Positions 1,961-51,827 of a stretch of DNA of 64,000 nt are shown here, piece after piece. The notes below the pieces were generated by a model. It made no database searches. It saw only the letters and a list, made by a program, of their open reading frames with translations, and had not been told where the DNA came from. The first letter of the stretch is position 1, and each line of letters opens with the position of its first letter. The stretch is taken from contig URIR01000001.1 of the NCBI GenBank assembly GCA_900547955.1, forward strand, positions 6,146 to 70,145, in the 5' to 3' direction. A program made the translations under genes and the position numbers. Source of the DNA: an uncultured Eubacteriales bacterium. GTDB taxonomy: Bacteria; Bacillota; Clostridia; Christensenellales; QALW01.

Positions 1961-2155
1961 GCCATATTCCTCCTTTCATAAGTAAATGATAAAAGCGTTT
2001 ATGCGCTTTTATATATAATATTAATATTGGATTATTGAGGGCGTAGTCATGACCACAACTAAAAGACGTGGCATGAACGATATCCATAAAAGTGCATGAT
2101 GTTAGCTGTACCTAAAAGTAACGCTGAGATGTGGGTTGTGCATAACTTTATTTCT

Positions 2156-2413: not shown

Positions 2414-2426
2414 ATGTATATCTCCT

Positions 2427-4178: not shown

Positions 4179-4213
4179 CAGACCTCACCTCATCAAAATC
4201 TAATTTAAATGAT

Positions 4214-5827: not shown

Positions 5828-6498
5828 AAACTTACTCCTTTTAATTATTGTTTATAGCCGCATTCTACTATAGAACGAATTCTCCCAATTTCACACTCTC
5901 TACAAACCATGAATTTAAAAAGACTTTTTAGTACTCACTCGAACACAAAAAGCGAAACAAGGTACAAATAAATACTATGATTCATGTCGCTCATAAATTT
6001 TATAGAAAATGAATAGAATAAACATAAGAAACTATAACTGCTATTATATGATAAAATTTGAACATATTTTTGACGTCCCATTTGTTGTTACGTTCTTTTA
6101 TCTTTTCTATTCATCTCCCTTTGGAATATTGCGTGAAAAATATTACTCATCTCCATTAGACTATCACACATTTTTTCAAATGTCAATATTTAATTTTAAA
6201 ATTTGCGGCTATATTATATATAAATTTCATTATATCTTTTGTCTAACATGTCGCAGTTTTGCTCTATCAAAAAACTAATAATTTGCACCATATTCATAAA
6301 TTTAATCGTATAAATATATTTTGTTGAATATATTTTATTAGAAATACCGTGAAACTTCCGATATCTCGCCTGAGAATCTGCAAAAGGTAATCAATAATTT
6401 GTTATCATCTGTTTTTATCGCTACATTTTTAATTAACATTGAGAGTGTATAAGTTTCACCATCTTAAGTTGCCCCTTGCCATTCAGTAACAATTTTTT

Positions 6499-8404: not shown

Positions 8405-8405
8405 A

Positions 8406-8942
8406 TTATCTCCTTCTTCCCCCAAATCCTGCCGTAGATATGATTTTAAATATATCACGGTCTGCATCTAATAGCTCCTCGATAATGTTTCCAAACATAT
8501 AGGCATCGGCACGATTGGTCTTTTCCTGTACAGCCAATAATTCCATCAAAACATAAAGAAACTCAACATCATATTCACCAAAAGCATTTAAGCTGAAAAA
8601 CTGAGCAATATCAATGTCGTTTTCGCCATTTTTGATTAGTGCCTTTAGCGTTTCATAATCATTATTGGTTAGTGGAACACAAGATTTCCAGCAATTTTGA
8701 ATAGCCAGCAAATATCTCTTTGCAAGAATTTCATTCCCCTGCATTTTCATCAATACATCTACTACCCAATGAATGTGCTTAGGAGTACGGATACGTGTAC
8801 TGTCTTTTTTGTACTTGATTACAATATCAAATTGCGATAAATTCCCTTGAAAAACATAGATAATATAATCTGTAAAGATAAATTCTATAATCGCTTTTTT
8901 AGTATCGTTTTCGATAAGTTGACTTCCTTTTCTGATTTCCAT
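8406..8942 (-). CDS. Hypothetical 178-aa protein embedded in the R-M operon
   Basis: Clean ORF, tightly packed between the methylase and the endonuclease and translationally coupled to the endonuclease. I recognise no motif. Confidence 0.6.
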   Translation of the reverse strand: MEIRKGSQLIENDTKKAIIEFIFTDYIIYVFQGNLSQFDIVIKYKKDSTRIRTPKHIHWVVDVLMKMQGNEILAKRYLLAIQNCWKSCVPLTNNDYETLKALIKNGENDIDIAQFFSLNAFGEYDVEFLYVLMELLAVQEKTNRADAYMFGNIIEELLDADRDIFKIISTAGFGGRRR

Positions 8943-8953
8943 ATATAAACCCC

Positions 8954-10024
8954 TTAAAAATTAGAAATAAGCAATTCCTTGATTTTACCCCTTGCCTCGC
9001 TGTTGCAGTTAATCATACGGGTAGCTTCAACACGCTTGATTCTATGAGACGAATAAATGTTATCGAAGAAGTTATCTTCGGTGTTAGAATTCTTGGGATC
9101 GGAATTGCTAATTACGACCTTTGCACCTTTTCTGTGCATATTATCAACGAATTTTGCGAGCTCAATCTGTTTTTCATCGTTAAACAAATTTTCCGTGTAT
9201 GCAGTAAAGCTCGCAGTATCTGTTATGGGGCGATATGGAGGGTCAAAATAAACGAAAGTATTGGCATCAATGAAAGCAGCTGATTCTCTATAGTCTCCGC
9301 ACACAATGTTTACCGTTTGCAGTTTTTCTGACACCGCTCTGAGATTTTCTTCATCACAAATCGAAGGATTTTTGTAAGCTCCCATAGGTACATTAAACAA
9401 GCCTTTTTTATTGACTCGGTATAAGCCGTTAAAGCAAGTTTTATTAAGAAAAATCATCAACGCTGCCTTTTCAATATTTACAATCTCGTTTCCATTGACT
9501 TTCAAATTATTAAAACGCTCCCGCTTTGCCAAGTAATATGCTTTGCGATGCTCCGTATCCATTGGAACAAACTCACTTTGCATGATTGCAAGCGTAAAAA
9601 CAAGATCATATATGTCGTCACGAATAATGCGATAGGCATTAATTAGTTCTGCATTAATGTCGCTGATATACACTTCCTTCAAATCGTACTTGCTTAAAAT
9701 ATCAAAAAGCACGGCGCCACCGCCTACAAATGGCTCGGCATACTTAGTAATTTTTTTATGTCCAAAGGGATAGTACTTTTCAATTTCGGACAGAAGCTGT
9801 CCTTTGCCACCCGCCCATTTTAAGAACGGTTTAACTTTACCACTATCCTGTTGCAAATATCGAGTAGTCCTCGCATCGATTGGTTTTTCTGCCGTAGTAG
9901 GTATGAGCCACGTATTACCCACCATTTTGGCATTAGCTATTCTGTTCTCCGAACAAAGAATAGCAACGCGTCTTTGTGATACCCCCCATTTATCAGCAGC
10001 TTCTCTTGCGGACATGTATTCCAT
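8954..10024 (-). CDS. Dam-type (D12 class) N6-adenine DNA methyltransferase with an N-terminal HTH domain
   Basis: N-terminus MSAREAADKWGVSQRRVAILCSENRI (HTH). Then KPFLKWAGGKGQLL, EPFVGGGAV and YFDPPY, the Dam family motifs. Confidence 0.9.
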   Translation of the reverse strand: MEYMSAREAADKWGVSQRRVAILCSENRIANAKMVGNTWLIPTTAEKPIDARTTRYLQQDSGKVKPFLKWAGGKGQLLSEIEKYYPFGHKKITKYAEPFVGGGAVLFDILSKYDLKEVYISDINAELINAYRIIRDDIYDLVFTLAIMQSEFVPMDTEHRKAYYLAKRERFNNLKVNGNEIVNIEKAALMIFLNKTCFNGLYRVNKKGLFNVPMGAYKNPSICDEENLRAVSEKLQTVNIVCGDYRESAAFIDANTFVYFDPPYRPITDTASFTAYTENLFNDEKQIELAKFVDNMHRKGAKVVISNSDPKNSNTEDNFFDNIYSSHRIKRVEATRMINCNSEARGKIKELLISNF

Positions 10025-10054
10025 AACGTGCCTCCTGTTTTAACGATAATATTA

Positions 10055-10072
10055 TATTCGAAATCTCGAATA
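10055..10072. promoter_or_regulatory. Palindrome TATTCGA-aatc-TCGAATA upstream of the HTH-methylase gene; candidate operator
   Basis: Perfect 7-bp inverted repeat with a 4-nt spacer, 30-50 nt upstream of the methylase start. Confidence 0.35.
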
Positions 10073-10124
10073 ATAGCAATACTGATTTTCTAAAAGCCAC
10101 AAATAATTTTCATTTTGACTTTAA

Positions 10125-10292
10125 GCTATATGTTGCCAAGACAAGGGCATTGTACATTGTGGGGAGTGCCCGGATATTCCGTGCGAATTATTGACGCAAT
10201 ATTCCTGTGCTCCTGAGCATGGTGATACTCCTCGGAGCGCCAGAATTGAGCAGTGCAAGCGGTGGTATGCCGAGCCGAAAGGAGAAAGATAA
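10125..10292 (+). pseudogene. 5'-truncated DUF3795-like zinc-binding protein fragment
   Basis: AICCQDKGIVHCGECPDIPCELLTQYSCAPEHGDTPRSARIEQCKRWY has no start codon and a stop lies immediately upstream. It sits at the GC-content step at the right edge of the low-GC block. Confidence 0.5.
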
Positions 10293-10539
10293 AATGGATA
10301 CAAAGATAATCTCTCTCCGTATGGAGCGCTAGTGCTTCATTCATAAAGCGGATGAAGAAGAATACATAAAATTATATCGGGATACCCAGCCTGGACAAAA
10401 TGTATATTGGAATGGATTCGGACAGCCACCGACGCTTTCTTTTCGTGCTGATTTTGATGATATTGAATTTAATCGTGACCGTCAGCTAAAATGAAAACTG
10501 ATAAAAGGCAGATTTTTCGGCGGCAATTTAGGCTGGATT

Positions 10540-11289
10540 GTGCCGGAAGATATGGAGCTGTTTATCGCTCTCTATCGCAAGCCGCTTGTAAAGCCAACTG
10601 AAATACAGCTGCGGGTCTTGGAGTTTATTAAACGGGAGGGACCGCTCAACATCCAGCAAATCAAAGAAGAAACCGGATTGCTTGTGAAAGAAATCACCCC
10701 CGCTCTTCACCGTTTGCAAGAGGCTTTTTTGATATATGAAGACCAATATGACGGTGAGTGGGACAGAGGATGGTATAAATTTGTTGGAATGTTCCCGCAA
10801 GTAAATTCCGATAAGGTTTCAAGACACAAAGCGCTCAAAATCGTATTGCAAAGATTCGCGTATCGTCTTGTATGGTTTGATACGGCGATGGCTAAATCAT
10901 TCTATAAGATTCCTGAAAAAGAAATAAAACTGTCTGTTAATGAACTGGTTGCTGAAGGCAGATTGGTTTTGTCAGGCTCAGGTTATATGCTGAAGAGTGA
11001 TGCTGACCTGCTCGAAAATTACGAGCCTCAGGTTATGAACTTCGTTTATGCGATTCACCGCAACGACTTTCTTTATAAGGTTCATGAGCACGTTCTGAAG
11101 GAGATGGCTAAGGAATTGACGAAAGGTCTTGAATATGATCACGAATCTCTGCAATACCTGTTGATTGACGGAGAATTCCACGGTGCGTCAGTCGGTCACT
11201 TTCGAAACGGTCCGTATGATCTCAATGATGTTGTTTGTGATTTGCCGAAAGTCGAAAAGAAGAAATTATCGAGGCAATTCGTGCTGTAA
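10540..11289 (+). CDS. Winged-helix domain protein, possibly YcaQ/AlkZ-like (DUF1006); possibly truncated
   Basis: IQLRVLEFIKREGPLNIQQIKEETGLLVKEITPALHRLQEAFLIYE has a wHTH pattern. There is no clear start codon or RBS (GTG 10540 or ATG 10552). Confidence 0.4.
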   Translation: MPEDMELFIALYRKPLVKPTEIQLRVLEFIKREGPLNIQQIKEETGLLVKEITPALHRLQEAFLIYEDQYDGEWDRGWYKFVGMFPQVNSDKVSRHKALKIVLQRFAYRLVWFDTAMAKSFYKIPEKEIKLSVNELVAEGRLVLSGSGYMLKSDADLLENYEPQVMNFVYAIHRNDFLYKVHEHVLKEMAKELTKGLEYDHESLQYLLIDGEFHGASVGHFRNGPYDLNDVVCDLPKVEKKKLSRQFVL

Positions 11290-11335
11290 ACTATGGTAAA
11301 AGTCCCAAACGGTTTATGGAAAAGGAATTATAAGA

Positions 11336-11842
11336 ATGAGCCAAGGACTGATTACTATTGTTGGAGCAAATGGAGCCGGAAAAACCACAACATCAAAATC
11401 ATTACTGCTGATGTGTCTGCATAGTGCATATGTGGATGCAGATTGGTGTAGAGCCATCAATCCATTTCAATTTACTAAAGCGACTAAAAAAACGATAACA
11501 AACAATATTATTTGCTTAATTAGAAACTATTTATTATGCGATGATATCGAAACCGTTATCTTCCACTATGGTTTTTATGGAGAAAGAAAAGCGCTCTATG
11601 ATGAAGTGATGAATTGCTTAAGAAATGAGGGGATAATTTTCGATGAATACATTGTTGCATTAAAATGTGAGTATGACGAAAACAAAAGACGTTCTATTAA
11701 AGATAACAGAGATCCTGAACGTGTAGAGCGAGGAATGAGAAATACGTTTAATTTCTATGATGGTTTTGGTTATCCTATAATAGACACAATATTTCTTTTT
11801 TCAGATCAAGTTGCTGAAAAAATCATAGAGACGTTCTTCTAA
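11336..11842 (+). CDS. P-loop NTPase / kinase-like protein
   Basis: Walker A motif IVGANGAGKTTT at the N-terminus. 168 aa, low GC. Confidence 0.55.
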   Translation: MSQGLITIVGANGAGKTTTSKSLLLMCLHSAYVDADWCRAINPFQFTKATKKTITNNIICLIRNYLLCDDIETVIFHYGFYGERKALYDEVMNCLRNEGIIFDEYIVALKCEYDENKRRSIKDNRDPERVERGMRNTFNFYDGFGYPIIDTIFLFSDQVAEKIIETFF

Positions 11843-11944
11843 TGAATTATTCTCGCTCAAGGAAATTTAGATATCAAATCGGGCAATAGTGAAATATAAC
11901 TTCATTAGATGATATCGCACCGCTTTTGAAAAATACGCAGATAA

Positions 11945-11985
11945 GCACAAAGTCCGCAGATTCACTAATTCTGCGGACTTTGTGC
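11945..11985. terminator. 15-bp perfect hairpin (GCACAAAGTCCGCAG / CTGCGGACTTTGTGC) without a clear U-tract
   Basis: Read directly. It lies between the convergent P-loop gene and guaA. Confidence 0.4.
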
Positions 11986-12031
11986 CTCTCAATCGGTCAC
12001 CTTTGAAAGTATCCTTATGGGAACCCTGTAT

Positions 12032-19654: not shown

Positions 19655-22009
19655 ATGGGCGGTATTGAAAAAAATTCTCTTCCGGGCTATATAAAGCGCA
19701 TTGCTGCGGAGCAGGGAATAGACGTTGGCGGCATAATAGCCTTTGGACGGGGAGATCTTAACGCGCAGTGCGGCTTTAAGGATACGTATATTCTGGCTGA
19801 TAAGGAGGCTTTGCATATCCTTTATATGCATTGCGCGCCGTCAGTACGCGTTTTCGGCGGTTACTTTGACTCAAAGAAGAGAAGAGGCCACTTTATGCAG
19901 CAGAAAGAGGCGGAGCGCACTCTGGAAAAATATTTAAAATTTCCCTATGAAAGCGTAGAGGAACTTAAAATGGAGAACAGGCTTTCAGGCGGGGAAATTA
20001 TATTGCGTTCGGGCGGCCTGGAGAGCTTTGTCTGCGCCTTTTCGGGCGGATATATGCGGGAGAATATGCGCTTTAAGCATATTGTGGATAAGCTTATAAA
20101 AAAAGAGGAGCTGAATTCAGAAGATATTAAGGAAGCGGAAATGGAAAGACGCTGCCCTAAATGCGGCATGCTTTATCCAGAGACGGATAGGGCCGTATGT
20201 CCCCGCTGCATGGATAAAAAATCTCTGTTTCTGCGCATGCTGGGTTACTTTAAGCCGTATAAGCTGCGTATAGCTCTGTTTTTTATCTGCGTGGTGCTGG
20301 AAACGGTTATGAATCTGTTCGTGCCTCTTTTAAGCGGTACGGTGTTTTATGATATAGTGAGCCGGAACGAGGAGACGCTGTCATCCCTTGGGCTGCCTGC
20401 GGGCGCGTTTGTTTTGGCGGTGGTGATTATTTCTCTAACGATATTGCTTTCGCGCATTCTTCAGGCGGGCTTTACTATTATAAAAGGCAGGATAGTCGGG
20501 CACATAGTGCCCCTTGCGGTATATGACATAAAAACAGGGCTGTATAATTCCGTGCAGCGTCTTTCGGTCGGGTTTTTTGCCAAGAGACAGACGGGCGCCT
20601 TAATGACCAGGATAAGCGAGGACGCAAACGAGGTCATGAGCTTTTTTATAGACGGCCTGCCTTATATGTTTACAAATATGCTTTTTATAATCTCCAGCAT
20701 AGCTATAATGCTTTCAATGAGCGTGAGACTTACTTTGCTTTCGGTTATGACCTTGCCCCTGCTGTTTTTTGTAAGCTTTAAAATGCAGCCGGTATTATGG
20801 AGATATAACGGCAGACGGCATAGAAGCAGACGGGCGCTTTATTCGCTTATGAACGATAACCTTACGGGGGCCAGGGTGGTAAAAGCCTTTGGGCGGGAGC
20901 AGGCGGAAAACCAACGCTTTTACAGAGTGAGCAAAAGGGTGCGCAGGGCCGAGATGGATTTGGTAAATTACGACAACCTGTTTTATATGGTATATGCCGG
21001 AGTGGAGCAGTTCGCTATAGTTTCGGTATGGCTTTTCGGCGTGGGCATGGTGCTGGGAGACAGCCCTTTAATTGATTACGGCGTACTGGTAACGTTTATA
21101 AGCTATGTTACCTCCCTGGCCGAGCGGCTGGACTTCTTTTCATATATATTCCGCTGGTGGGCCGCGAGCATGAACAGCGCTCAGCGTATATTTGAAATAT
21201 TGGACGCTTCGCCCGAGGTGGTTCAGAGCGCCCAGCCTAAGCGTCTGCCTGAGGTTAAAGGAGAGGTAGAGCTTAAAAACGTCAGCTTCAGCTATGAGCC
21301 TAACAAGCCGGTCTTAAGCGGCGTCAGCTTTAAAGCCAGCCCGGGCCGCATGCTGGGAATTGTAGGACATTCGGGCGCCGGCAAGAGCACCATTGTTAAT
21401 CTTATTTCCCGCCTTTACGACGCGCAGGAGGGCGAGGTGCTTTTAGACGGAGTGAACGTTAAGGAGCTTTCCTTTGAACAGCTTCATAAAACCATTGCCC
21501 TAGTTTCTCAGGAGACGTATATTTTTCGCGGCACAGTAGCGGAAAACATAGCTTACGCCTGTCCCGGGGCTGCTCCGGAGCAGATAATAGAGGCGGCTGT
21601 AGCGGGCAGCGCGCACGATTTTATCATGAAGCTGCCAGACGGCTATAATACCGTTATAGGCGGAGGGGGACGCAGTCTCTCGGGCGGAGAGAGACAACGC
21701 ATTTCCATTGCGCGCGCTATTTTGGCCAACCCGAAAATTTTGATTCTGGACGAGGCTACCGCGAGTTTGGATACGCAGACCGAGCGCAGGATTCAGGCCG
21801 CTATAGACGCCTTGGTAAAGGGGCGCACTACCATAGCCATAGCGCACCGGCTTTCCACACTACGCAATGCCGACAATTTAATAGTTATAGAAAACGGGCG
21901 GGTAACCGAGCAGGGCACGCATGTGGAGCTGGCTCGCAGAAAAGGCACGTATTATAAGCTTTTGCAGCTTCAAAGCAAGGCGCTCGCATTAAGAGGGATA
22001 GGAGAATAA
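19655..22009 (+). CDS. ABC exporter half-transporter (TMD-NBD) with a ~190-aa N-terminal cytosolic extension ending in a Cys4 zinc ribbon
   Basis: CPKCGMLYPETDRAVCPRC precedes TM1. The NBD carries GHSGAGKST, LSGGERQR and ILILDEATS. Confidence 0.9.
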   Translation: MGGIEKNSLPGYIKRIAAEQGIDVGGIIAFGRGDLNAQCGFKDTYILADKEALHILYMHCAPSVRVFGGYFDSKKRRGHFMQQKEAERTLEKYLKFPYESVEELKMENRLSGGEIILRSGGLESFVCAFSGGYMRENMRFKHIVDKLIKKEELNSEDIKEAEMERRCPKCGMLYPETDRAVCPRCMDKKSLFLRMLGYFKPYKLRIALFFICVVLETVMNLFVPLLSGTVFYDIVSRNEETLSSLGLPAGAFVLAVVIISLTILLSRILQAGFTIIKGRIVGHIVPLAVYDIKTGLYNSVQRLSVGFFAKRQTGALMTRISEDANEVMSFFIDGLPYMFTNMLFIISSIAIMLSMSVRLTLLSVMTLPLLFFVSFKMQPVLWRYNGRRHRSRRALYSLMNDNLTGARVVKAFGREQAENQRFYRVSKRVRRAEMDLVNYDNLFYMVYAGVEQFAIVSVWLFGVGMVLGDSPLIDYGVLVTFISYVTSLAERLDFFSYIFRWWAASMNSAQRIFEILDASPEVVQSAQPKRLPEVKGEVELKNVSFSYEPNKPVLSGVSFKASPGRMLGIVGHSGAGKSTIVNLISRLYDAQEGEVLLDGVNVKELSFEQLHKTIALVSQETYIFRGTVAENIAYACPGAAPEQIIEAAVAGSAHDFIMKLPDGYNTVIGGGGRSLSGGERQRISIARAILANPKILILDEATASLDTQTERRIQAAIDALVKGRTTIAIAHRLSTLRNADNLIVIENGRVTEQGTHVELARRKGTYYKLLQLQSKALALRGIGE

Positions 22010-22572: not shown

Positions 22573-24756
22573 ATGAATTTATGCGTGCAGCCGCCTGCGG
22601 AACAGCGCGAACTTATCAACAGGCTGCTTGAAGGAGAAAAAATATGCTATTGCGCTCCTTTTGATCTTTCGCCTAACGGTGAAATTATAAAGAATGCGTT
22701 TGTAAGCGTGAGCCGCAGCAGGCTGGCTGTGACCGGGCCGGGAATTGAAAGGGTTTATTCTTTGAAGCAGTTTGAGCGGATAGAATGCCAAATGCTGATA
22801 AATAACGCGGTGCTTGTGGGTTATATTAATGGGCAGGAAAAGCTTTTAGCACGCTTCAGAACGGTAAACGCGCTGAAATTTTCCTATATTGCGCGTGGAG
22901 CAAGCCTGTTTATTAAGGGCGACGAGCGGATTATAACCAGCAGGGAAAGAGAAAGAGTATGCCCTAAATGCGGGCGCGGTATGCACGGTGCAAATTATTG
23001 CGCTCATTGCGAGGGGCGAGGGCGAACCTTCAGGCGGGTTTTATCTATGGCTAAGCCTCACATTATGGATTTAACGCTGGTTTCCATTATAATGCTTGTG
23101 ATAACCGGTATAAATGTGGGGGCGCGCTTCGCTGAAAAGGGACTGGTAGACGAGGTTATAATGGTGAACGGCCCGCTTGCCGAGGCATATAAATATATTT
23201 TTATCATGATAATCCTAACTGCTATGGTGATAGTTTGCTACGTCCTGCGCAATTATCTCAGCGCCCGCTTGGGCACCAGCATAAGCATGGATATGCGCAG
23301 AAGGCTTTATGAAAAGATACAGGCTCTGTCCATAGGCTATATTTCGGGCGAACGGCCGGGCGCTTTAATGAACAGGATGACGCAGGATACGCAGCAGATA
23401 AGACGCTTTATGGAAAATACATTTGCTCAGATGTTTAATCAGATTTTGACAATGCTGGGCAGCATAATAGTTATGTTTATTTTGGACTGGCGGCTTTCTC
23501 TTATGATTTTGGCGCTGATGCCTGCAATAATACTTTTTACCGCTTATTTCAGGCGCATATTTAAAATATTTCATAAGCAGTGGATAGCCAGCGACGAAGT
23601 AAACAGCCAGCTTCAGGACGTGCTTTCGGGAATAAGGGTGGTTAAGGCATTTGGAACAGAGGAAAGGGAAACCTTAAAATTTGCGGCTGGAAACGCAAAG
23701 GTTGCGCATATTACTCAGCGCGCTGAGAAGCTTTGGGCGACGCTTAACCCTATTTTCGAGCTCATTTTCGGATTGTCTACCGTTCTGGTTATACTTTACG
23801 GCGGAATAAATGTGCTTAACGGCGGTTTTACAATGGGCGAAATAACCATGTTTACCTTTTACAGCGCTGCGCTTTACGGCTGCATGCGCTGGCTGGGCAA
23901 TATGCCCAGGATGGTTATAAGCACACTAATATCCATAGACCGAATCTACAGCGTGCTGGATGAGGAGGAAACTATAACCAGCCGTGAAAACGCGGTAGTC
24001 AGGCGGATTGAAGGCAGAGTAAGCATCAGGGACGTATATTTTGGATATAACGCTTATGAAAGCGTGCTGGAAGGAATAAGCCTTGAAATTAAGCCAGGAG
24101 AGATGATAGGACTTGTAGGAGCTTCGGGCACGGGTAAATCTACTCTTATAAATCTTATTATGCGTATGTACGACGTGGACGCTGGAGAAATAGATATTGA
24201 CGGAATAGATATAAGAAATTATGACAAGGAATGTTTGCATAGGCAGATAGGCGTAGTATTGCAGGAGCCGTTCCTTTTTTCGGGCAGCGTGCTGGATAAT
24301 ATAAGATATTCCAAGCCTGAGGCGGGATATGAGGAAGTAATAAGGGCGGCTAAGCTGGCTAACGCGCATGATTTTGTTATAAAATTCCCAGATGGATATG
24401 ATACTAAGGTGGGAGAAAACGGTCATAATCTTTCGGGCGGGGAAAGACAGAGAATAGCCATAGCGCGGGCTATACTCTGCGACCCCAAAATACTTATTCT
24501 GGACGAAGCGACAAGCAGCTTGGATACGGAGACCGAATATCAGATACAAGAAGCTCTTGCACGGCTTATCAAGGGGCGCACTACTATTGCGATAGCTCAT
24601 AGGCTTTCCACTTTGCGCGGCGCAGATAGAATTATGGTCATAGATAAGAAAAAACGAGCGGAGCTGGGAACGCATGACGAACTGCTCCGTCAAAAGGGGA
24701 TATATTATAATTTAGTTATGGCGCAGCTTCAGATGGGGAGGCTGGACGGCGGTTGA
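22573..24756 (+). CDS. ABC exporter half-transporter (TMD-NBD) with an N-terminal extension and zinc ribbon
   Basis: CPKCGRGMHGANYCAHC precedes TM1. The NBD carries GASGTGKST, LSGGERQR and ILILDEATS. Confidence 0.9.
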   Translation: MNLCVQPPAEQRELINRLLEGEKICYCAPFDLSPNGEIIKNAFVSVSRSRLAVTGPGIERVYSLKQFERIECQMLINNAVLVGYINGQEKLLARFRTVNALKFSYIARGASLFIKGDERIITSRERERVCPKCGRGMHGANYCAHCEGRGRTFRRVLSMAKPHIMDLTLVSIIMLVITGINVGARFAEKGLVDEVIMVNGPLAEAYKYIFIMIILTAMVIVCYVLRNYLSARLGTSISMDMRRRLYEKIQALSIGYISGERPGALMNRMTQDTQQIRRFMENTFAQMFNQILTMLGSIIVMFILDWRLSLMILALMPAIILFTAYFRRIFKIFHKQWIASDEVNSQLQDVLSGIRVVKAFGTEERETLKFAAGNAKVAHITQRAEKLWATLNPIFELIFGLSTVLVILYGGINVLNGGFTMGEITMFTFYSAALYGCMRWLGNMPRMVISTLISIDRIYSVLDEEETITSRENAVVRRIEGRVSIRDVYFGYNAYESVLEGISLEIKPGEMIGLVGASGTGKSTLINLIMRMYDVDAGEIDIDGIDIRNYDKECLHRQIGVVLQEPFLFSGSVLDNIRYSKPEAGYEEVIRAAKLANAHDFVIKFPDGYDTKVGENGHNLSGGERQRIAIARAILCDPKILILDEATSSLDTETEYQIQEALARLIKGRTTIAIAHRLSTLRGADRIMVIDKKKRAELGTHDELLRQKGIYYNLVMAQLQMGRLDGG

Positions 24757-24857
24757 ATTGTTTACATAAAGTTTATTTTTTATAAATTGACTCCAGGCGC
24801 GTAATATTATAAAATTCTCTAGTATATAATATAACAAATGCGGCGGTGTTGATATAC

Positions 24858-25550
24858 ATGAAAAAACTGGCTGTACTTTTAACTGTTGTGCTTATAGTAC
24901 CGTTTTTCTCTTCATGCGGCGAGCCGGCAGAGAAAGAAACGGCTTGGCCTTCGGTAGGGCCGGATTATTCAAACAGAGCTATTGCAAATTTTGACGGTGA
25001 ATATGAGGAGGCAAATAATATGCAGCATCCTGTGGCGTTTATCACTATGGAATCGGGCGCGGTGATAAAAGCGGAGCTTTATCTTGAAAAGGCGCCGGAA
25101 ACGGTTAATAATTTCATATATTTAGCTAATCAGAAGCAATTTTATGACGGGCTTATTTTTCATAGAGTAATAAGGGATTTTATGATACAGGGCGGATGTC
25201 CTGAAGGTACTGGCAAGGGCGGCCCTGGCTATACCATTAAGGGAGAGTTTGCGGCTAACGGCTTTACGCAGAACAATATAGCTCATGTGCCCGGCGTGCT
25301 GTCCATGGCCAGGCTGGCGTTTCCCTATGACAGCGCCGGTTCGCAGTTTTTTATATGCGTGGAAGATTGTCCGCATTTGAACGGGCAGTACGCTGCGTTT
25401 GGCATGGTGGTAGAAGGTATGGAGACAGTTTATGAAATAAGCGAGACTCCTACGGGCGTGCTGGATAAGCCACAGGAGCCGCAGGTTATAAGGAGCGTGC
25501 GCGTGGATACGCGGGGTGTGGATTATCCTATCCCGGAGGGAGCCAAATAA
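24858..25550 (+). CDS. Cyclophilin-type peptidyl-prolyl isomerase lipoprotein
   Basis: Signal peptide with lipobox FFSSC, FHRVIRDFMIQGG, and SMARLAFPYDSAGSQFFI. Confidence 0.9.
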   Translation: MKKLAVLLTVVLIVPFFSSCGEPAEKETAWPSVGPDYSNRAIANFDGEYEEANNMQHPVAFITMESGAVIKAELYLEKAPETVNNFIYLANQKQFYDGLIFHRVIRDFMIQGGCPEGTGKGGPGYTIKGEFAANGFTQNNIAHVPGVLSMARLAFPYDSAGSQFFICVEDCPHLNGQYAAFGMVVEGMETVYEISETPTGVLDKPQEPQVIRSVRVDTRGVDYPIPEGAK

Positions 25551-25557
25551 GCTTTAT

Positions 25558-25831
25558 ACCCTCAGTTTACAAAAAAAGACGGTCAGAAGGCATAAAATTT
25601 GCGTCCTGCTGCGCTGCTTTGATTCCATGTACGCCCGGTACATGTCGTTCAAGCGCCTTGCATGACGCAGATTTTATGCCTTCCGACTCTGGAGACCTCA
25701 AGGAAAAAGAATTTCTTCATTTTCAAGGCAGACGAAGAAAGCGTTACTTATGAGTACGCTGATTGAGGATAACGCAGAAAATGAAGAAATTATCCCGTTT
25801 TGAGGCGTGTAGTTCCTTGTAAACTGAGGGT
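25558..25831 (+). repeat. MITE-like repeat, copy 1 (274 bp; strand label arbitrary)
   Basis: Terminal inverted repeats ACCCTCAGTTTACAA... / ...TTGTAAACTGAGGGT. Near-identical to 33030..33300 and 51303..51579 in inverse orientation. Confidence 0.8.
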
Positions 25832-26295
25832 GGGCTGAGATTAAATAATTATGTTTCGGAGGGAAGCGCGGCTTGGTTTGCGCTTCTCTTTTCTATTATC
25901 TGCGCTTTTTAATAAGGGATTCCGCTATTTTGATGCTGGGATAGAGACTTAAACCTCTCCTCTTCCGCTCCAAAAACGTCGCTTTTACCGGCTTTTTATT
26001 GCTGCAGCCTCTTTTGCTATTAACGTAAATTGATGCGATGCTTAAGCTTGTAAACTGCGTTATTGCGAAATTTGTTATTCTGATATTTTCATGAACGAAT
26101 ATGTTTTTGAATAATTAGTCGTTAAGTTTCATTCTAAGCTTGTCAATTTCACAATTTTTAAGTATAATTATTTTCCTTTTGATACTGCCTGCTTTGATTT
26201 TTGGCGATAGGAATAATGCTGACGGCAGGCGAGCAAATATATTCGGAGTATGGATTTAGCGTTAAAGAAATTATATAAATTATAGAGGGATGGAT

Positions 26296-27576
26296 ATGAA
26301 AATTTTAGGTATAGATATTGGGACTACTAGTATATCATTTGCGGTTTTTGAGGATAGGGAATGTCTGGCGAGTTATACTTTAAAAAATAATTCGGCATTG
26401 CCTGGAAGCGATAATATAAGACAGGACGCCGATAAAATTTTGGATATAATAGAAACTCAGCTTTGCGGCATAAGCCGCGAACATCCCAATATAGAGCGGC
26501 TGGGCCTGACGGGGCAGATGCATGGCATATTATACCTGGATAAGGCTGGGCGCGCTGTCAGCCCGCTGTATACATGGCAGGATAACAGCGCGTGCGAGCC
26601 GTATAAAGACACTACATACACGGGTTTTATTGAGCGGACTGTGGGTAGAAGCATTTATGGAGGCTATGGGCTGGCGACGCATTTTTATCATAAGCTTAAC
26701 GGGATGGTACCTGCAAACGCTTCCTGCCTATGTACCATATCGGATTATGCGGCTATGAAATTAGCGGGGATAAGCCGTCCGTATATGCATATTTCCAATG
26801 CGGCTTCATTAGGTTTGTATAATTTAAAAAGCAACAGCTATGATTTTGAGGCTATTTCAAGGCTGGAACTAAACGAGGCTTTGCTGCCTGACATTATAAA
26901 CCAAGCGAAAATATTGGGAGAAAACAACGGTAGGGGCGTATGCGTTGGCCTGGGGGACAATCAGGCCAGTTTTATTGGATGCGTTCGGGACGGGCAGAAG
27001 GAAATACTTTTGAATGTGGGGACAGGCTCGCAGATATCATGTATGAGCGGCAGCATATATCAGGACAGCGAAATTGAAACCAGGCCGCTGGACGGAAATC
27101 AATATCTGCTTGTCGCTTCAGCGCTTTGCGGTGGGCGAGCTTATGCAATGCTTGAAAGATTTTTTGAAGAGGTTCTGGCTATGGGCGGAGTTAAGCCCCG
27201 GACGCTTTATATGGAGATGGAGAGGGCGGCTAGAAATAGTCGGACCGCAGGCTTAAAGACAGATACGTGTTTTTGTGGAAAACGAGGCGAAAAACAGGCT
27301 TTAGGCAGCATAAAAAATATAAGTGAGGGAAATTTTACTCCCGGAGCGCTTGTTGAAAGCTTTTTAAGGGGTATGGCGGAAGAATTGCTGCCTGCTTATA
27401 CAAAATATTGCGCTTTGGGCGACTATAAATTGCTGCGTGCGTCGGGTAACGCCGTGCGCAATAATGGTTATTTCAGAGAACTAATAGAGGAAATTTATCA
27501 GATGCCTCTGGAATTGGCTTCGGCAAGGGAGGAAGCGGCTTTCGGCGCGGCGCTTTTTGCTGCCGGGGCTGAATAA
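26296..27576 (+). CDS. FGGY-family carbohydrate kinase
   Basis: MKILGIDIGTTSISFAVF N-terminus, GQMHG and GLGDNQASFIG motifs. Confidence 0.8.
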   Translation: MKILGIDIGTTSISFAVFEDRECLASYTLKNNSALPGSDNIRQDADKILDIIETQLCGISREHPNIERLGLTGQMHGILYLDKAGRAVSPLYTWQDNSACEPYKDTTYTGFIERTVGRSIYGGYGLATHFYHKLNGMVPANASCLCTISDYAAMKLAGISRPYMHISNAASLGLYNLKSNSYDFEAISRLELNEALLPDIINQAKILGENNGRGVCVGLGDNQASFIGCVRDGQKEILLNVGTGSQISCMSGSIYQDSEIETRPLDGNQYLLVASALCGGRAYAMLERFFEEVLAMGGVKPRTLYMEMERAARNSRTAGLKTDTCFCGKRGEKQALGSIKNISEGNFTPGALVESFLRGMAEELLPAYTKYCALGDYKLLRASGNAVRNNGYFRELIEEIYQMPLELASAREEAAFGAALFAAGAE

Positions 27577-27583: not shown

Positions 27584-27718
27584 ATAAAAGCAGGCCGTTT
27601 TAAATAAATCCGGCGCCGTTTGGCAGGCTGAAAGCCTGCCGTGCCGGGCTGCAAGCCCGGCGCGCGGCCCTGCGGGCCGCAAACGGCGCCAGATTTATTT
27701 AAAACGGCCTGCTTTTAT
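27584..27718. other. Nested palindrome: 38-bp closing stem around three GC-rich hairpins
   Basis: Arms 27584..27621 and 27681..27718 are complementary with one mismatch. Inner hairpins are GGCAGGCT-GAAA-AGCCTGCC, GCCGGGC-TGCAA-GCCCGGC and GCGGCCC-TGC-GGGCCGC. It lies between convergent genes. Confidence 0.7.
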
Positions 27719-27786
27719 GCTTTAGGCGCGTCAAACAGGCCGTTTTGTATCCAAATTGTATTTCTTAGCTGATATATTTGAAATTT

Positions 27787-32072: not shown

Positions 32073-32936
32073 ATGAATACGCATAAAGTGAAAATTATAG
32101 CGGACAGCACCTGTGATTTATCTCCTGAACTAATTAAAAAATATGATGTGGAAATAGTGCCGCTTTATGTAACCCTGGGCGACGAAAGCTTAAGGGACGG
32201 TGTGGATATTACTCCGGACGAGCTGTATCGCTGGGCGGATAAAAATAAAACTACTCCTAAAACCGCGGCTATAACTCAAGCGGACGCCTATAAGGTAATG
32301 AAAAAATACGTCGAACAGGGCTGCGAAATTGTATATACGGGAATATCCTCTGAAATGTCAGTTGCGCACGGAAACGCGCAGCTTGCGGCTGAAGAATTTC
32401 CTGACGCCAGGATTGCCGTGGTGGATTCAAAAAATCTTTCTACGGGGGTAGGCCATACGGTTATTAAAGCGGCCGAATTGGCGCAGGAGGGCTTAGGGGC
32501 CTTTGAGATAAAGGAGAAATTGGATAAATTTACTCCGCTTGTCCGAGCCAGCTTTGTGGTGGATACTATTACATATCTTTACCGTGGAGGCCGGTGTTCG
32601 GCCATAGCGGCTTTCGGTGCTACGGCCCTGAATTTAAAGCCCTCCATAGTGGTGGAGGACGGCCGGATGCGCCCTGACGCCAAATATCACGGCAAAATAG
32701 ACAGAGCGCTGAAAAAATATGTGCAGGGTATGATTCCTGAGCTTATAAAAGCCAGGCCTGACCGCGTTTTTATAACCCATTCGGGCAGCAGCGAGGATAC
32801 CATTAATATGGTTAAGGGCTATATAGACGAATTAAAGTATTTTAAGGAAGTGCTTATAACACGGGCCGGCTGCGTTATTTCCAGCCATTGCGGGCCGGGT
32901 ACGCTGGGCGTGCTTTATGTAGAACAGGATAAGTAG
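32073..32936 (+). CDS. DegV-family fatty-acid-binding protein
   Basis: KIIADSTCDLSPELIKKYDVEIVPLYV and the overall DegV pattern. Confidence 0.9.
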   Translation: MNTHKVKIIADSTCDLSPELIKKYDVEIVPLYVTLGDESLRDGVDITPDELYRWADKNKTTPKTAAITQADAYKVMKKYVEQGCEIVYTGISSEMSVAHGNAQLAAEEFPDARIAVVDSKNLSTGVGHTVIKAAELAQEGLGAFEIKEKLDKFTPLVRASFVVDTITYLYRGGRCSAIAAFGATALNLKPSIVVEDGRMRPDAKYHGKIDRALKKYVQGMIPELIKARPDRVFITHSGSSEDTINMVKGYIDELKYFKEVLITRAGCVISSHCGPGTLGVLYVEQDK

Positions 32937-33029
32937 CCCGGCAGAAAGACTTATTGAATACTGTCAGAAAGCATCTGAACCGGCGTTTATACCCATCGGT
33001 TTGATACCATTATTTTCTGTAAGCTGATT

Positions 33030-33300
33030 ACCCTCAGTTTATAAGGAACTATACGCCTCAAAACGGGATAATTTCTTCATTTTCTGCGTTATCCTCAATC
33101 AGCGTACTCCCAGTACGCTTTCTTCGTCTGCCTTGAAAATGAAGAAATACTCTCCGTTTGAGGTCTCCAGAGTCAGAAAGCATAAAATCTGCGTCATGCA
33201 AGGCGCTTAAACGACATGTACCGGGCGTACATGGAATCAAAGCAACGCAGCAGGACGCAGATTTTATGCCTTCTGACCGTCTTCCTTATAAACTGAGGGT
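33030..33300 (-). repeat. MITE-like repeat, copy 2 (271 bp)
   Basis: Same element as 25558..25831 in inverse orientation, flanked by TA on both sides. Confidence 0.8.
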
Positions 33301-33406
33301 AAATAAGCTTTAAAGACCTGCGGCAGGCCTGCCGCGGGTCTTTCATTTAATTATCATAGTATATTTAAAGGAAATAATTTCCCCTTTGGATAAGTATTTT
33401 TTATTT

Positions 33407-34108
33407 TTATCTTATTCCGCCGCAGTCGCAGTCGCATCCGCATCCGCCGCCTGCATTGTCAAGCTCGGGCGGGAATATCGGAAGATTGAAGAATTCGTCG
33501 CATACCTCCGAAGCGAATTCCTCGCACGGGGGGATACGGCAGAAGCCGTAGGCGGGGACAACAAGCTCCACGTCGGCTACTATCTTAAGTATAACGGTTA
33601 CGCAGCTGGTAAGGCGGAAGGTGTTGTCGGCCAGATAGCAGCCCTGGACGCAGATTGCGCTGACAATAGTGTCCACCATAAAAGGAATTATTGATTCGTC
33701 AGGAACAAAAAGCACAACGTCCTTGCAGACGGTAATTATGCCGTTGCCGCGTCCTTCCTGGCAGTTTGCGTCCTCAAAGAGTATTTCAACGGGGATATCC
33801 ACCTTACAGCGGACGCGCGCGAAATTGGGACGGTCGCAGAGACGGTCTATGCAAAGGTCGCGCACGCAGCCCTTGGTATTTGTGCTGCGGCAGCTTATAA
33901 AGGTTATAGGCGCTGTAAACTGCGCGCCTGCCGGGCATATATCCACCAGCTTGACGTTAACGTTATCCAATTGCTCCTGCTGCATGCAGGAATCATATAC
34001 TTTCTTTACTTGTATGCAGACTCTTTCAGTAAGGCCTCTGGTGCAGTCTCCGGTAATTCTGCCGGGGCATATATCATTATCGCTGCTGCGATATGAATAA
34101 AAAGACAT
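33407..34108 (-). CDS. Cysteine-rich protein of unknown function (possible spore-coat/exosporium-type protein)
   Basis: 233 aa with about 28 Cys, a C-terminus of AGGGCGCDCDCGG and a strong RBS AAGGAGG. A CATAGGATA motif (34170..34178) upstream resembles a sigma-K -10 element. Confidence 0.6.
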   Translation of the reverse strand: MSFYSYRSSDNDICPGRITGDCTRGLTERVCIQVKKVYDSCMQQEQLDNVNVKLVDICPAGAQFTAPITFISCRSTNTKGCVRDLCIDRLCDRPNFARVRCKVDIPVEILFEDANCQEGRGNGIITVCKDVVLFVPDESIIPFMVDTIVSAICVQGCYLADNTFRLTSCVTVILKIVADVELVVPAYGFCRIPPCEEFASEVCDEFFNLPIFPPELDNAGGGCGCDCDCGGIR

Positions 34109-38056: not shown

Positions 38057-40594
38057 TCAGCCGTTTTCAAGAAAATCTTTAAGATAGCGTCCGGTTAAGC
38101 TGTCGGAGCATTTGATAATTTGCTCAGGCACGCCGGCCGCGACTATCCTGCCGCCTGATTGCCCGCCGCCCGGTCCCATGTCCACTATATAATCTGCATT
38201 GGCAATCATATCCAGGTCGTGCTCAATAACGATAACTGTTGCGCCTTTTTCAATCAGCCTTTGAAAAACATCGGTTAAAACGCGTATATCCAGAGGATGC
38301 AGGCCTATGGTTGGTTCGTCAAAAACAAATACTGCGTCCGTCTGAGATTTACCCATTTCATACGCTATTTTCAGCCTCTGGGCTTCGCCGCCTGATAAAG
38401 CGGGCGTAGCTTCGCCCAGCGTAAGATAGCCCAGACCCAGGCTGCAAAGGGTTTCAAGGCGCTCGCGTATTTTTTTGACGTCAGGCATCAGCTCCAGCGT
38501 CTGGGCTATGGTATAATTCATTAGCTCGGGTAAGGAAACGCCTGATTGTTCCTGGCCGGGCTTTTTAGGCAGCCAGCGAATTTTTTCGCATTCTTTGGAA
38601 TAGCGCGAGCCGCCGCATTCAGGACAGGTGATTTCCACGTCGGGGAGAAATTGAATATCCATGGTGATTTGCCCTGTTCCGTCGCAGGCCGGACAGCGCA
38701 GAGCTCCGGTATTATATGAAAAATCTCCCGCCTTCTTCTTCATCGCCTTGGCTGCGGGCAGACCTGCATATATTCGGCGCAGCTCGTCCAGGATTCCGCT
38801 GTATGTCGCAACAGTAGAGCGTATGTTGGCGCCTATAGGGGCTGCGTCAATGATGTTTACCCGTTCTATGCCCTCTGCTTCCAGGGCTTTTACATGACCT
38901 GGCAGAGGCCGGCGGCTGATTTTTGCCTGAAGCGCAGGGACAAGGCTTTCCAAAAGCAAAGTGGTTTTTCCTGAGCCGGATACTCCCGTTACGGCGGTTA
39001 AGCGTCCCTTAGGGAGCTTTAATTCAAGAGCGTGAACGGTATGCAGCGGCTTTGTTGAAATGGATATTGTTCCATTTTCAAACAGCTCTTCAGCAGGAAT
39101 TTTAGGACGAAGGCGGGGCAGTTCTTTTCCAGCTAAATATTTTCCAATTAGCGAAAGCGGATTTGCAATTATTTCCTTAACAGTTCCGGCGGCTATTACG
39201 CTGCCGCCGTCAGTTCCGGCGCCGGTCCCCATTTCTATCAGCCAATCGGCCGCTTTAAGCACGCGCGTGTCATGGTCGACGAGCACGACGGAATTGCCGC
39301 GGGAAATCAGGTCGCGTATCATGCCGAGAAGCCCGTCTACGTTAGATGGATGCAGTCCTATAGAAGGCTCGTCCAGCACATAAAGCACCCCTGTGGTCTG
39401 GTTTCTGACGGCTCTGGCAAGCTGGACTCGCTGACGTTCGCCCGTAGAAAGAGTATTGCCCGCGCGGTCTAGGGTCAGATAGTTAAGTCCGAGCTCAGCC
39501 AGCCGCTTGGCGGTATTTATAAATTGGTTTGCTATGCTTTGAGCCATTTCTCGCATTGCTTGGGGCATGGTTCGGGGAACGCGCTTTACCCATTCGGTTA
39601 ATTCCTCAAGAGTCATAGCTGAAGCGGCGGGTAGGTTTATACCGCATAGAAGTGTGGAACGGGCTCTTTGATTTAAGCGTGAGCCGCCGCAGTCGGGGCA
39701 TACGTCCTGTTTCAAAAATTTTTCCACGCGCTTCATTCCGCTGTCGTCTTTTACTTTAGCCAGCGCGTTTTCTACGGTATAAACCGCATTATAGTATGTA
39801 AAATCCAGTTCTCCGGCCTGATTGCTGTTTTTAGCCTTATACAAAATGTGCTTTTTTACCGCAGGGCCGTGAAAAACAATTTCCCGCTCTTGGTCAGTCA
39901 GTTCGGAAAAGGGGACATCGGTCCGAACGCCCATTGCCCTGCATACGTCGGTCATTAAAGACCACATGAGAGAATTCCACGGAGCGACCGCGCCTTGGTC
40001 TATAGTTAGCGAAGCGTCGGGTACCAGCGTAGATTCGTCTACCGTTCTTATCAGGCCTGTGCCGCCGCAGGTTGGGCAGGCTCCGCTGCTGTTGAAGGAA
40101 AAATCCTCTGCGCTCGGCGCTTCAAATACAGCGCCGCAGACAGGGCAGGAGAGGGGCTTATCTATTGCGGCGTTAACGGTTGGCTCAATGTAATGTCCAT
40201 TCGGACAGAGATGGCTGCCCAAACGCGAATACATAAGCCGCAGGCTGTTGGTTAGTTCGGTAGAGGTGCCAAATGTGCTTCGGACGCCAGGTATGGCGGG
40301 CCTTTGGTGCAGCGCGAGGGCCGCAGGTATATTTTCTATGCCGTCTATCTTAGCCTCAGCCGCCTGAGTCATGCGCCGCCGCGTGTAGGCGGATAGCGCT
40401 TCAAGATAACGGCGCGAACCTTCGGCGTATAAAACGCCCAGGGCCAGAGAGGATTTTCCCGAGCCGGAAACTCCTGCAATAGCTGTCAGCCGTCCGAGCG
40501 GAATATCGACGTCTATATTTTTGAGGTTGTGTACGCGCGCGCCTCTTATTAAGATATTATCAGGCTGCGTTTTTTCAGTTTCTGTTACATTCAT
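38057..40594 (-). CDS. UvrA-family ABC ATPase paralog (845 aa, shorter than canonical UvrA)
   Basis: [36 protein letters not shown], zinc-finger CxxC pairs and two ABC modules. Confidence 0.85.
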
Positions 40595-40803: not shown

Positions 40804-40833
40804 TATGGCGCAATTATTTTCCGCGCTCAAATT

Positions 40834-40951
40834 ACCCTCAGTTTACAAGGAACTACACGCCTCAAAACGGGATAATTTCTTCCTTTTCTGCGTTATCCTC
40901 AATCAGCGTACTTCTAGTACGCCTTCTTCGTCTTCCTTGTAAACTGAGGGT
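40834..40951 (-). repeat. MITE-like repeat, copy 3 (118-bp internal-deletion derivative)
   Basis: It keeps both terminal inverted repeats and the first ~95 nt, and is flanked by TA. Confidence 0.75.
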
Positions 40952-40981
40952 ATGATTCGCAAAAATAACATACGGATTAAC

Positions 40982-42328
<1,347 letters not shown>

Positions 42329-51060: not shown

Positions 51061-51302
51061 CACTTTTTTAAATTATTTGCTTTTGAAATAATAATAAAAA
51101 ATATATTATAGAGGATTAATTTTAAAAACGTTGACTCTTTGCATGTTGTTGGTTCGACAAATATATTTGATATTATTATTATTTTCTCCAGTTTGCATTT
51201 AGGTATTAAGTATCCAGAATTGTATTTGTGTTTTTTTACATATAATTGCTTTAAAAGCCGGATGTAATTTACTTTTTTAAATAAGCGTTTTAGTTTGCAG
51301 AT

Positions 51303-51579
51303 ACCCCCAGTTTACAAGGAACTACACGCCTCAAAACCGAGATAATTTCTTCATTTTCTGCGTTATCCTCAATTATCGTACTCATAAGTAACGCTTTCTT
51401 GGTCCGCCTTGAAAATGAAGAAATTTTCTCTCTTTGAGGCCGCAGAGTCAGCAGGCATAAAATTTGCGTCAGGTAAAGCGCGCTTGAAGGAGGAATGCAC
51501 CGGGCGCACATGAAATTAAAGCAGCGCGGCAGGACGCAGATTTTATGCATTCTGAACGTCTTCCTTGTAAGCTGAGGGT
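51303..51579 (-). repeat. MITE-like repeat, copy 4 (277 bp)
   Basis: Same element and same orientation as copies 2 and 3, flanked by TA. Confidence 0.8.
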
Positions 51580-51827
51580 ACAACAAGGTTTATAATCAGA
51601 GAGACTAAAGAGTATCAAATGCGTATACTGTCTGATTTAAGCGTGATATGCGTTATTATTCAGGTTATATTTGAAATTTTCATAAATGCGGCATAATCAG
51701 CTAAAAGTCAAAACAAAGGAAGAGTAAGTCAAATTAGTAAATTGAATTTGGGTGTTACTGACATTATAATTTTAATATACTGCTGACCTTATTATAAATT
51801 ACGGTCGGCACATAAGGAGGATTCAGT

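Follow-up and report, generated by a model that had tools for sequence, protein, structure and literature searches.

A gene-less mobile repeat family of gut Christensenellales that may be dispersed in trans by a large serine recombinase

A family of short repeats resembling miniature transposable elements with inverted repeats (MITEs) occurs in four copies in the 64,000-nucleotide stretch of DNA analysed here (the window), which belongs to an uncultured Eubacteriales bacterium of the Christensenellales (contig URIR01000001.1, positions 6,146 to 70,145 of the forward strand). The repeats are a dispersed, mobile and non-autonomous family carrying no genes. They are probably, with roughly two chances in three, MITE-like elements recombined in trans by a multi-targeting large serine recombinase (LSR), the TA at their borders then being the crossover dinucleotide. 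It also seems likely, if to a slightly smaller degree, that they represent a class of bacterial MITE-like repeats that such an enzyme would amplify and disperse in trans, acting on 25-bp attachment (att) arms. Both proposals come from sequence comparison. The 21-nt core at both ends, its spacing to the flanking dinucleotide and the distal part of the target motif tie the repeat to an LSR element family, not to a DDE transposon.

The copies in the window are all bounded by TA-CCCTCAGTTTAYAAGGAA and its complement, and the core of these ends is the 21-nt sequence CAGTTTACAAGGAACTACACG (cores of the CAGTTTACAAGG type). A 36-nt query from the longer form of the end gave a 23/23-nt match in Campylobacter jejuni plasmids of the pTet type (E = 8e-3), and near-matches to the extended end were present in Subdoligranulum variabile and in an Oscillospiraceae plasmid. 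In C. jejuni pGMI16-002, in S. variabile and in the Oscillospiraceae plasmid the match is the exact terminus of a larger unit, each with the core at both termini in inverted orientation. The C. jejuni unit, of 7.95 kb, is an integrative and mobilizable element (IME) with a MobV relaxase, RepA, aadE, a GNAT acetyltransferase and other cargo. Its one annotated recombinase, with the Pfam domains Resolvase, Recombinase and Zn_ribbon_recom, is an LSR, and no DDE transposase is annotated within the unit. Its location is:

NZ_CP028186.1 (pGMI16-002), 60711-66602 plus 1-2062 (loci L164, L165): C. jejuni IME

The MITE core is identical at 20-21 of 21 positions to both termini of the LSR IME, a spacer of the same length, 4 nt, stands between core and flanking dinucleotide in either element, and the right-end core of the first window copy (copy 1, listed below) is identical to IME End A at 21/21. 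End A reads YTAGG-TCAGTTTACAAGGAACTACACGCAGACCGTGAAACGGG and End B reads AA-AGTA-CAGTTTACAAGGGACTACACGGGGTAACGGTCTGACGGGAGG. Outside the core the similarity is specific to the end, the right end of the MITE (..ACACGC..AAACGGG) being like End A and, in the CTACACGGTCAGAAGG subfamily, the left end being like End B (..ACACGG..TCTGACGGGAGG); a hairpin starts directly after the core in MITE and IME alike. The C. jejuni IME lies in a hypothetical gene of the pTet backbone, at a site that is uninterrupted in 167 pTet-type Campylobacter plasmids, and alignment of pTet from strain 81-176 with both junctions showed that the element was inserted precisely, with an overlap of TAA. Assuming AA as a 2-nt crossover, the core is preceded by a 4-nt spacer at each IME end (AGTA and AGGT). 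The MITE geometry, TA-CCCT-core, equals that of the IME, with 10 bp between the inverted cores in either joint and an arm of 4 + 21 = 25 bp in both elements. This arm is complete at the right end of all MITE copies, and at both ends in ~35% of them. Structural work on a Listeria phage integrase showed that such an enzyme makes contact along all 25 bp of an attP half-site, the two halves flanking a central dinucleotide (PMC3783163).

End B is associated with the recombinase gene itself. It is located ~53 nt past the LSR stop codon at all 14 junctions with a full LSR gene (LSRs at least 76% identical), is missing beside a 69%-identical homologue, and at locus L162 follows a 3' remnant of the gene. 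Because an identical LSR protein adjoins at least six different downstream genes, the enzyme is multi-targeting. Its 90%-identity cluster has 21,769 members and is very abundant in gut metagenomes; at >90% identity it spans Lachnospiraceae, Anaerovoracaceae, Oscillospiraceae and Campylobacter plasmids, and the named members come from Fusicatenibacter, Coprococcus, Anaerovoracaceae, Faecalibacterium and Oscillospiraceae. Units that keep both ends with no functional LSR gene also exist, at L162 (1.58 kb) and at L163 (2.19 kb, no LSR gene annotated). The IME was found repeatedly in or beside the 5' region of an IS200-like (Y1) transposase gene (...GGTATTTGCAATTCCAT; L162 2569-3001, L166 1867-2535, L178 ~2763-2800), possibly a target that it prefers. 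In Faecalibacterium and Clostridioides difficile, IMEs that combine MobV with a serine recombinase have been described, some of them carriers of aadE (PMC12084326, PMC12271512), and the C. jejuni IME appears to be a cross-phylum transfer of a resistance element of the gut-Clostridia type.

The target sites point in the same direction. In an alignment of 70 non-redundant MITE sites centred on TA, T was found at positions -13, -12 and -11 with frequencies of 0.87, 0.79 and 0.64, mirrored by A at +11, +12 and +13 (0.63, 0.69 and 0.80), the background being ~0.30 in both cases. A reached 0.53 at -8, and weaker mirrored positions were seen at 8-10 and 15-16. The target can be summarized as TTT-N10-TA-N10-AAA, symmetric and placed one helical turn out. 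At the junction flanks of the IME (n = 18 distinct) the frequencies of T at -13, -12 and -11 were 0.83, 0.89 and 0.89, and that of A at -8 was 0.67, the distal positions (TTT from -13 to -11 and A at -8) being hence common to MITE and IME sites. A hairpin as the target was considered and rejected: left and right flanks were no more complementary than base composition predicts, and the target is therefore a sequence motif. One multi-targeting LSR described by Durrant et al. has TT as its core and flanks enriched in T and A (PMC10083194).

The copies in the window, with the parts of copy 1, are the following:

25557..25832, forward strand: copy 1, full length, 276 bp including the flanking TA...TG (end and internal-motif matches)
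25557..25576, forward strand: copy 1 left end, with TA, the 4-nt spacer CCCT and the core CAGTTTAC
25581..25688, forward strand: copy 1 left internal hairpin arm, GTCAGAAGGCATAAAATTTGCGTC...GACGCAGATTTTATGCCTTCCGAC around CATGTAC-GCCCG-GTACATG (fold; BLAST opposite-strand self-match)
25689..25805, forward strand: copy 1 right internal hairpin arm, AATTTCTTCATTTTC...GAAAATGAAGAAATT around GCGT..ACGC (fold)
25806..25832, forward strand: copy 1 right end, the 25-bp half-site (CGTGTAGTTCCTTGTAAACTG + AGGG) and the flanking dinucleotide TG
33029..33301, reverse strand: copy 2, full length, 273 bp including the flanking TA
51302..51580, reverse strand: copy 3, full length, 279 bp including the flanking TA
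40833..40952, reverse strand: copy 4, internal-deletion derivative, 120 bp, with both ends and part of the right arm retained

The 20-nt end TACCCTCAGTTTACAAGGAA has eight matches in the window at up to 3 mismatches (0 expected from 100 shuffles), one at each of the eight ends, and an internal 34-mer of the repeat occurs four times where none is expected. The first-pass annotation, made from the letters of the window alone, had described a MITE-like family of four copies with terminal inverted repeats (TIRs), internal complementary arms and no transposase, all of them intergenic. Its positions hold to within a base or two, the TIRs are seen at 8/8 ends, the arms are recovered in the fold of copy 1 (z = -11.7), 4/4 copies lie between long open reading frames (ORFs), and no transposase was found among the window ORFs read or in the Pfam-annotated gene tables of matching contigs. 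The short derivative does exist; its length is 120 bp and not the 118 bp assigned to it. With the element read as CCCTCAG...CTGAGGG, TA adjoins seven of the eight window ends, as had been claimed; the sole other end, the right one of copy 1, has TG, and TA stands at the same site in other strains. The left arm of copy 1 is a shortened, A-rich variant, and the deletion in copy 4 is bounded by two CAAGGnAGACG direct repeats.

Among strains of ~99% identity, insertions are present in some and absent in others, and filled and empty alleles indicate that the family has moved, with TA on both sides of the insert and one TA when the site is empty. The cleanest case is a filled site reading ...GTCAT-TA-[CCCTCAG...CTGAGGG]-TA-AAGGG (contig L121), whose empty counterparts in L043 and L055, with flanks 98% identical to it, read ...GTCCT-TA-AAGGG. 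In a third pair, L115/L153 and L070, the alleles agree with a single TA at the empty site, so the comparison of strains agrees with the TA duplication that had been anticipated. The site of copy 1 is empty in strain contigs L004 and L007, which are otherwise ~99.7% identical, and filled in L001-L003 and L008-L010; the empty allele is 1 nt off a clean TA site and lies in a locally diverged flank. Head-to-tail MITE dimers sharing one TA were found in L131 (~9023-9590) and L068 (13537, contig end), the joint ...CTGAGGG-TA-CCCTCAG..., equal to the one predicted for a circle, being thus present twice, but in tandem dimers or at a contig end.

The window matches a human-gut metagenome scaffold at 100% identity over 22 kb and many others at ~99%, and dispersal extends beyond it. 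When 185,579 species genomes were scanned for exact matches to the end sequence, one bacterial species was hit, a single chance match aside: the chicken-gut metagenome-assembled genome (MAG) 'Candidatus Neochristensenella gallicola', whose 23 loci hold at least 30 copies (70-93% identity). The window's source genome was not among the hits and may be masked or absent there. A metagenome scan returned at least 117 loci. In all sequence examined there are at least ~110 elements with both ends (92 distinct sequences) and at least 86 distinct insertion sites, most of them in metagenome contigs; the repeat is not a local one. Most have lengths of 258-282 bp, and there are deletion classes of 120, 159-170 and 196-198 bp. 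In the main subfamily, to which the four window copies all belong, the left arm is shortened and lacks half-site positions 19-25. Where the flanks of two strains are 99-100% identical, their copies at one site still diverge by 8-9%, and copies look like mosaics of alternative modules; the cause may be gene conversion between copies or a wrong repeat variant put in by metagenome assemblers. The whole repeat had no match in plasmid or phage collections, and matches in viral contigs were rejected, as they were two chance ones of 18-19 nt. The literature searched gave nothing on the end sequence, on a link between MITEs and serine recombinases, or on MITEs of Christensenella-like bacteria.

A MITE is found upstream of an orthologous UvrA-like gene both in the window (40833-40952) and in the Neochristensenella MAG (L015 6156-6345), the two UvrA-like proteins being 67% identical. 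The elements have opposite orientations there, so the insertions look independent, which suggests that this upstream region is a favoured site hit independently.

In the mechanism that we propose, both ends of the repeat would be arms of an LSR attachment site and not inverted repeats bound by a transposase. Next to the TA, each half-site would comprise the CCCT spacer and the 21-nt core, 25 bp in length. Joining of the ends in an excised circle would produce an attP-like palindrome of ~52 bp around TA, with the predicted joint TTCCTTGTAAACTGAGGG-TA-CCCTCAGTTTACAAGGAA. An LSR acting in trans, the likely source of which would be a mobilizable IME of the WP_007215987.1 clade or a relative, would pair this joint with loose attB-like targets of the TTT-N10-TA-N10-AAA form, cut both partners at the central TA and swap the strands, leaving the element with a TA on each side. 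Hence, the apparent TA duplication would be the crossover dinucleotide, and, TA being palindromic, either insertion orientation would be possible. LSRs such as phiC31 and Bxb1 tolerate altered central dinucleotides if the partners match, and a palindromic centre removes the control of orientation, which fits the insertion of the MITE in both orientations. The action of an LSR on the MITE, the circular intermediate, the route by which copy number rose and the effects on neighbouring genes are all steps that we infer.

Several features weigh against this mechanism. The central dinucleotide is TA in the MITE and AA in the IME, the spacer is CCCT versus AGTA or AGGT, and IME sites, unlike those of the MITE, favour A at -3 and G at -2; from these differences in centre, spacer and proximal target, the enzyme may be a relative of the IME recombinase, or the link may be only ancestral. 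No LSR of this clade was found in the MITE-bearing contigs, the best tblastn match there reaching 28% identity at most. LSR elements do not usually have dozens of dispersed copies in a genome and, as canonical LSRs do not recombine attL with attR unless a directionality factor is present, re-excision and amplification would not be expected of them. A 63-71-aa ORF upstream of the LSR gene is a candidate for such a factor. All four window copies carry the shortened left arm. The similarity to the IME covers only ~25-40 nt per end, the first database match was modest when taken alone (E = 8e-3), and TIRs with a flanking TA are equally expected from an IS630-type element.

Indeed, the alternative that survives best, although it is an unlikely one, is that of a classical MITE: an IS630/Tc1-mariner-type DDE transposase would bind TIRs of ~20 bp, cut and paste the element into TA, and leave a gap whose repair duplicates the TA. 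It explains the inverted-repeat ends, the TA on both sides and the single TA at the empty site, although the TA pattern follows just as well from a 2-nt crossover by a serine recombinase, and multicopy dispersal is typical of transposase-driven MITEs. The habits of ISY100, an IS630 member that inserts almost only at TA, duplicates it and needs ~24-30 bp per end, would fit too (PMC2170065). However, no insertion sequence (IS) with a DDE transposase was found between ends of the TA-CCCTCAGTTTACAAGG type at IS spacing in the window, in the MAG or at 117 metagenome loci, nor any full-length IS with the repeat ends in the ~1.4 Mb of contigs around MITE copies that the search for a parent IS covered. 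The six-frame translation of this 1.4 Mb contained no IS630-type catalytic signature (Y[ST]PxLNPxE as a regular expression), a crude test, and MAG and metagenome contigs frequently lack ISs. The ends match none of the annotated IS630 elements of plasmid or phage collections, and their only relatives are the termini of the LSR IME, an element precisely inserted in pTet and with no DDE transposase. Moreover, the symmetric motif located 11-13 bp from the TA and common to the LSR IME would have to be a coincidence. In favour of the transposase, End B of the IME starts with TA-CAGT within its spacer and core, which presumably resembles Tc1-type ends. The first-pass annotation had seen in the repeats an active or recently active MITE family mobilised by an IS630/Tc1-mariner-type transposase; the mobile, non-autonomous repeat is supported, and its assignment to that transposase is not, the only larger elements found to share its ends being LSR IMEs.

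Some larger intervals between repeat ends were considered as a parent IS and rejected. In L116 (2259 bp) two remnants enclose a transporter gene, in L097 (676 bp) a GC-rich palindrome and an ant(6)-like gene fragment interrupt a MITE, and the interval in L029 (343 bp) contains an N-gap. Solo ends, considered as traces of an IS, were truncations or chance matches.

Less probable still is that the repeat is an old and immobile relic of the LSR element or of a common ancestor, the differences among strains being due to deletion, gene conversion or recombination. The copies are indeed old, with a median pairwise identity of 88% among full copies and of 86-92% to copy 1 among window copies (copy 2, 92%; copy 3, 86%), the left arm is shortened in all window copies, MITE-bearing contigs gave no partner enzyme and the empty allele of copy 1 is 1 nt off within its diverged flank. 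A relic would hardly account for the clean presence and absence between 98%-identical flanks with an exact single TA, supported by a second consistent case, or for 86 distinct sites (among the matches listed) with a sharp target motif. The 120-bp deletion class, moreover, is located at two unrelated sites, that of copy 4 and another in L102.

The folding of the repeat was analysed as well. Copy 1 folds with -120.8 kcal/mol, compared with -67.5 +/- 4.6 for shuffles (z = -11.7), into a terminal stem and two long hairpin arms, and the opposite strand folds nearly as stably (z = -10.9). Hairpin loops differ among copies while the stems are mostly constant, and the hairpins stay ~90% paired across alignments of 21 and 69 copies; the pairing is kept because the sequence is conserved, and not by compensatory change. 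The RNAalifold covariation term was ~0, and with 69 copies the covariation score and the number of double-change pairs were no better than in shuffles (84/500 and 411/500 were as good). Covariation does not support a selected RNA structure. Rfam 15 gave no match at gathering thresholds over the whole window and, for the repeat at E <= 1, weak matches only, to eukaryotic snoRNA and microRNA families, so that the repeat does not belong to a known structured RNA family there. That it is primarily a functional structured RNA or a regulatory palindrome (a terminator, an mRNA stabiliser or a small RNA gene) with its spread secondary is very improbable: the stability on both strands, the variation concentrated in hairpin loops, the intergenic location of 82 of 86 distinct sites (among the matches listed) and a weak trend to co-orientation with genes in tandem contexts (27:11, crude gene calls) would favour it, but the Rfam and covariation results, the lack of a terminator-like or promoter-like site within copy 1 and the presence of copies in every gene context and in both orientations disagree with it. 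A coding role was rejected too. A 98-aa ORF overlaps copy 3 and a frame stays open in most copies, but its median of 81 aa is matched by the 79 aa that the consensus yields under simulated neutral drift; the indels do not come in multiples of three, and a 3-base periodicity is absent.

The Correia elements of Neisseria and RUP of Streptococcus pneumoniae are bacterial MITEs of the IS630 type. Such MITEs have been reviewed (PMC2229807), and the repeat described here is like them in being gene-less, multicopy, mostly intergenic and self-complementary, of 100-300 bp, with TIRs, TA and internal-deletion derivatives. It differs in that no cognate DDE element was found, in that its ends are homologous to the termini of an LSR IME, and in its extended target, TTT-N10-TA-N10-AAA and not TA alone. 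With Tn4451/Tn4453 (TnpX), Tn5397 (TndX), the MOBV1 IMEs and the LSR clade of Durrant et al. 2022 (PMC10083194; PMC12084326; PMC12271512) it has in common the pseudo-palindromic arms of ~25 bp around a 2-nt crossover, present on both sides after insertion. Like other multi-targeting LSR elements it uses many target sites with T-rich 5' and A-rich 3' flanks, and its autonomous relative is an IME with MobV and an LSR that carries aadE and other cargo. However, those elements encode their own recombinase, extend over kilobases and are found in one or few copies, whereas the repeat has 120-280 bp, no gene and dozens of copies per genome. Its centre, furthermore, is a palindromic TA as opposed to AA/TT, the central dinucleotide of Tn4451 reportedly being GA.

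Two further systems can be compared. Integron cassettes are moved by a tyrosine recombinase that acts on folded single-stranded attC, are inserted at one attI site and usually carry a gene. The repeat resembles them in being a small unit with an imperfect-palindrome site that, as proposed, would be moved as a circle by a recombinase encoded elsewhere; it differs in its many sites, its lack of a gene and the serine instead of tyrosine recombinase that we propose. Cis-mobilizable elements (CIMEs) are decayed remnants of integrative and conjugative elements or IMEs that keep the att sites and lack recombination genes (PMC12084326). Like them, the repeat is non-autonomous, bounded by sites of a recombinase element and would depend on the enzyme of another element; unlike them, it is dispersed over at least 86 sites, while CIMEs remain at the attachment site of the parent, usually single or in tandem with it, and spread by accretion with a helper.

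Short repeats with TIRs and TA flanks are routinely classified as IS630/Tc1-mariner MITEs. If the LSR mechanism is correct, this anatomy would not suffice for such an assignment, and the partner of some 'orphan' MITEs may belong to another class of enzyme. The family would also offer a natural minimal substrate, the joint of ~52 bp, and ~70 mapped target sites for a clade of multi-targeting LSRs with the simple motif TTT-N10-NN-N10-AAA, enzymes that are of interest as tools for genome integration (PMC10083194). The autonomous relative is mobilizable, carries aminoglycoside-resistance genes and has, judging from sequence, moved between gut Clostridia and Campylobacter pTet plasmids; the miniature copies may thus record past visits of the IME.

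As to the surroundings of the copies in the window, copy 1 has a peptidyl-prolyl isomerase gene (24846-25550) on its left and an FGGY kinase gene (26290-27576) on its right. Copy 2, which was found in every strain contig reaching its site, lies between the convergent genes for DegV (32073-32936, forward) and a 233-aa ORF (33407-34108, reverse). The neighbours of copy 4 are the UvrA-like gene (38057-40594, reverse) and a glutamate dehydrogenase gene (40982-42313, reverse), and copy 3 is placed between the divergent genes for an ammonium transporter/P-II (49216-50994, reverse) and a 657-aa ORF (51828-53801, forward). Many metagenome contigs end at copy 3, and contig breaks are frequent at repeat copies. 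Downstream of copy 2, strain contig L005 carries unrelated genes from 7385 on, by a rearrangement at the repeat or an assembly chimera.

At window positions 55032-56992 (compared with L035 13205-15594 and with L037/L039) the strains vary: the window has three small reverse-strand genes, one of them DUF4314, and other strains have an AraC-family gene and a further MITE copy at this position. Some (L037/L039) have in addition, at a tRNA gene and 193 bp past that MITE, an island that encodes three serine recombinases; it was rejected as unrelated, these recombinases being ~23% identical to the LSR of the IME.

A different small palindromic element seems to be present at 27602-27733, between the FGGY kinase and aldolase genes. 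It is an insertion of ~132 bp when compared with strain contig L005, has the direct repeat CAGGCCGTTTT on either side and consists of a long outer stem around three GC-rich hairpins; the GC-rich palindrome that interrupts the MITE in L097 (~9600-9730) is similar. Positions 1-12000 of the window have a low GC content (30-39%, versus ~45-50% elsewhere) and, from the translations read, radical-SAM-like and subtilase-like ORFs and a restriction-modification pair of the DpnII type, with no transposase seen in this interval; composition and gene content make it probably a foreign island. Finally, a 77-nt direct repeat at 21818-21894 and 24571-24647, with 73% identity, lies inside two paralogous ABC-transporter genes and is hence a coding similarity and not a mobile repeat.

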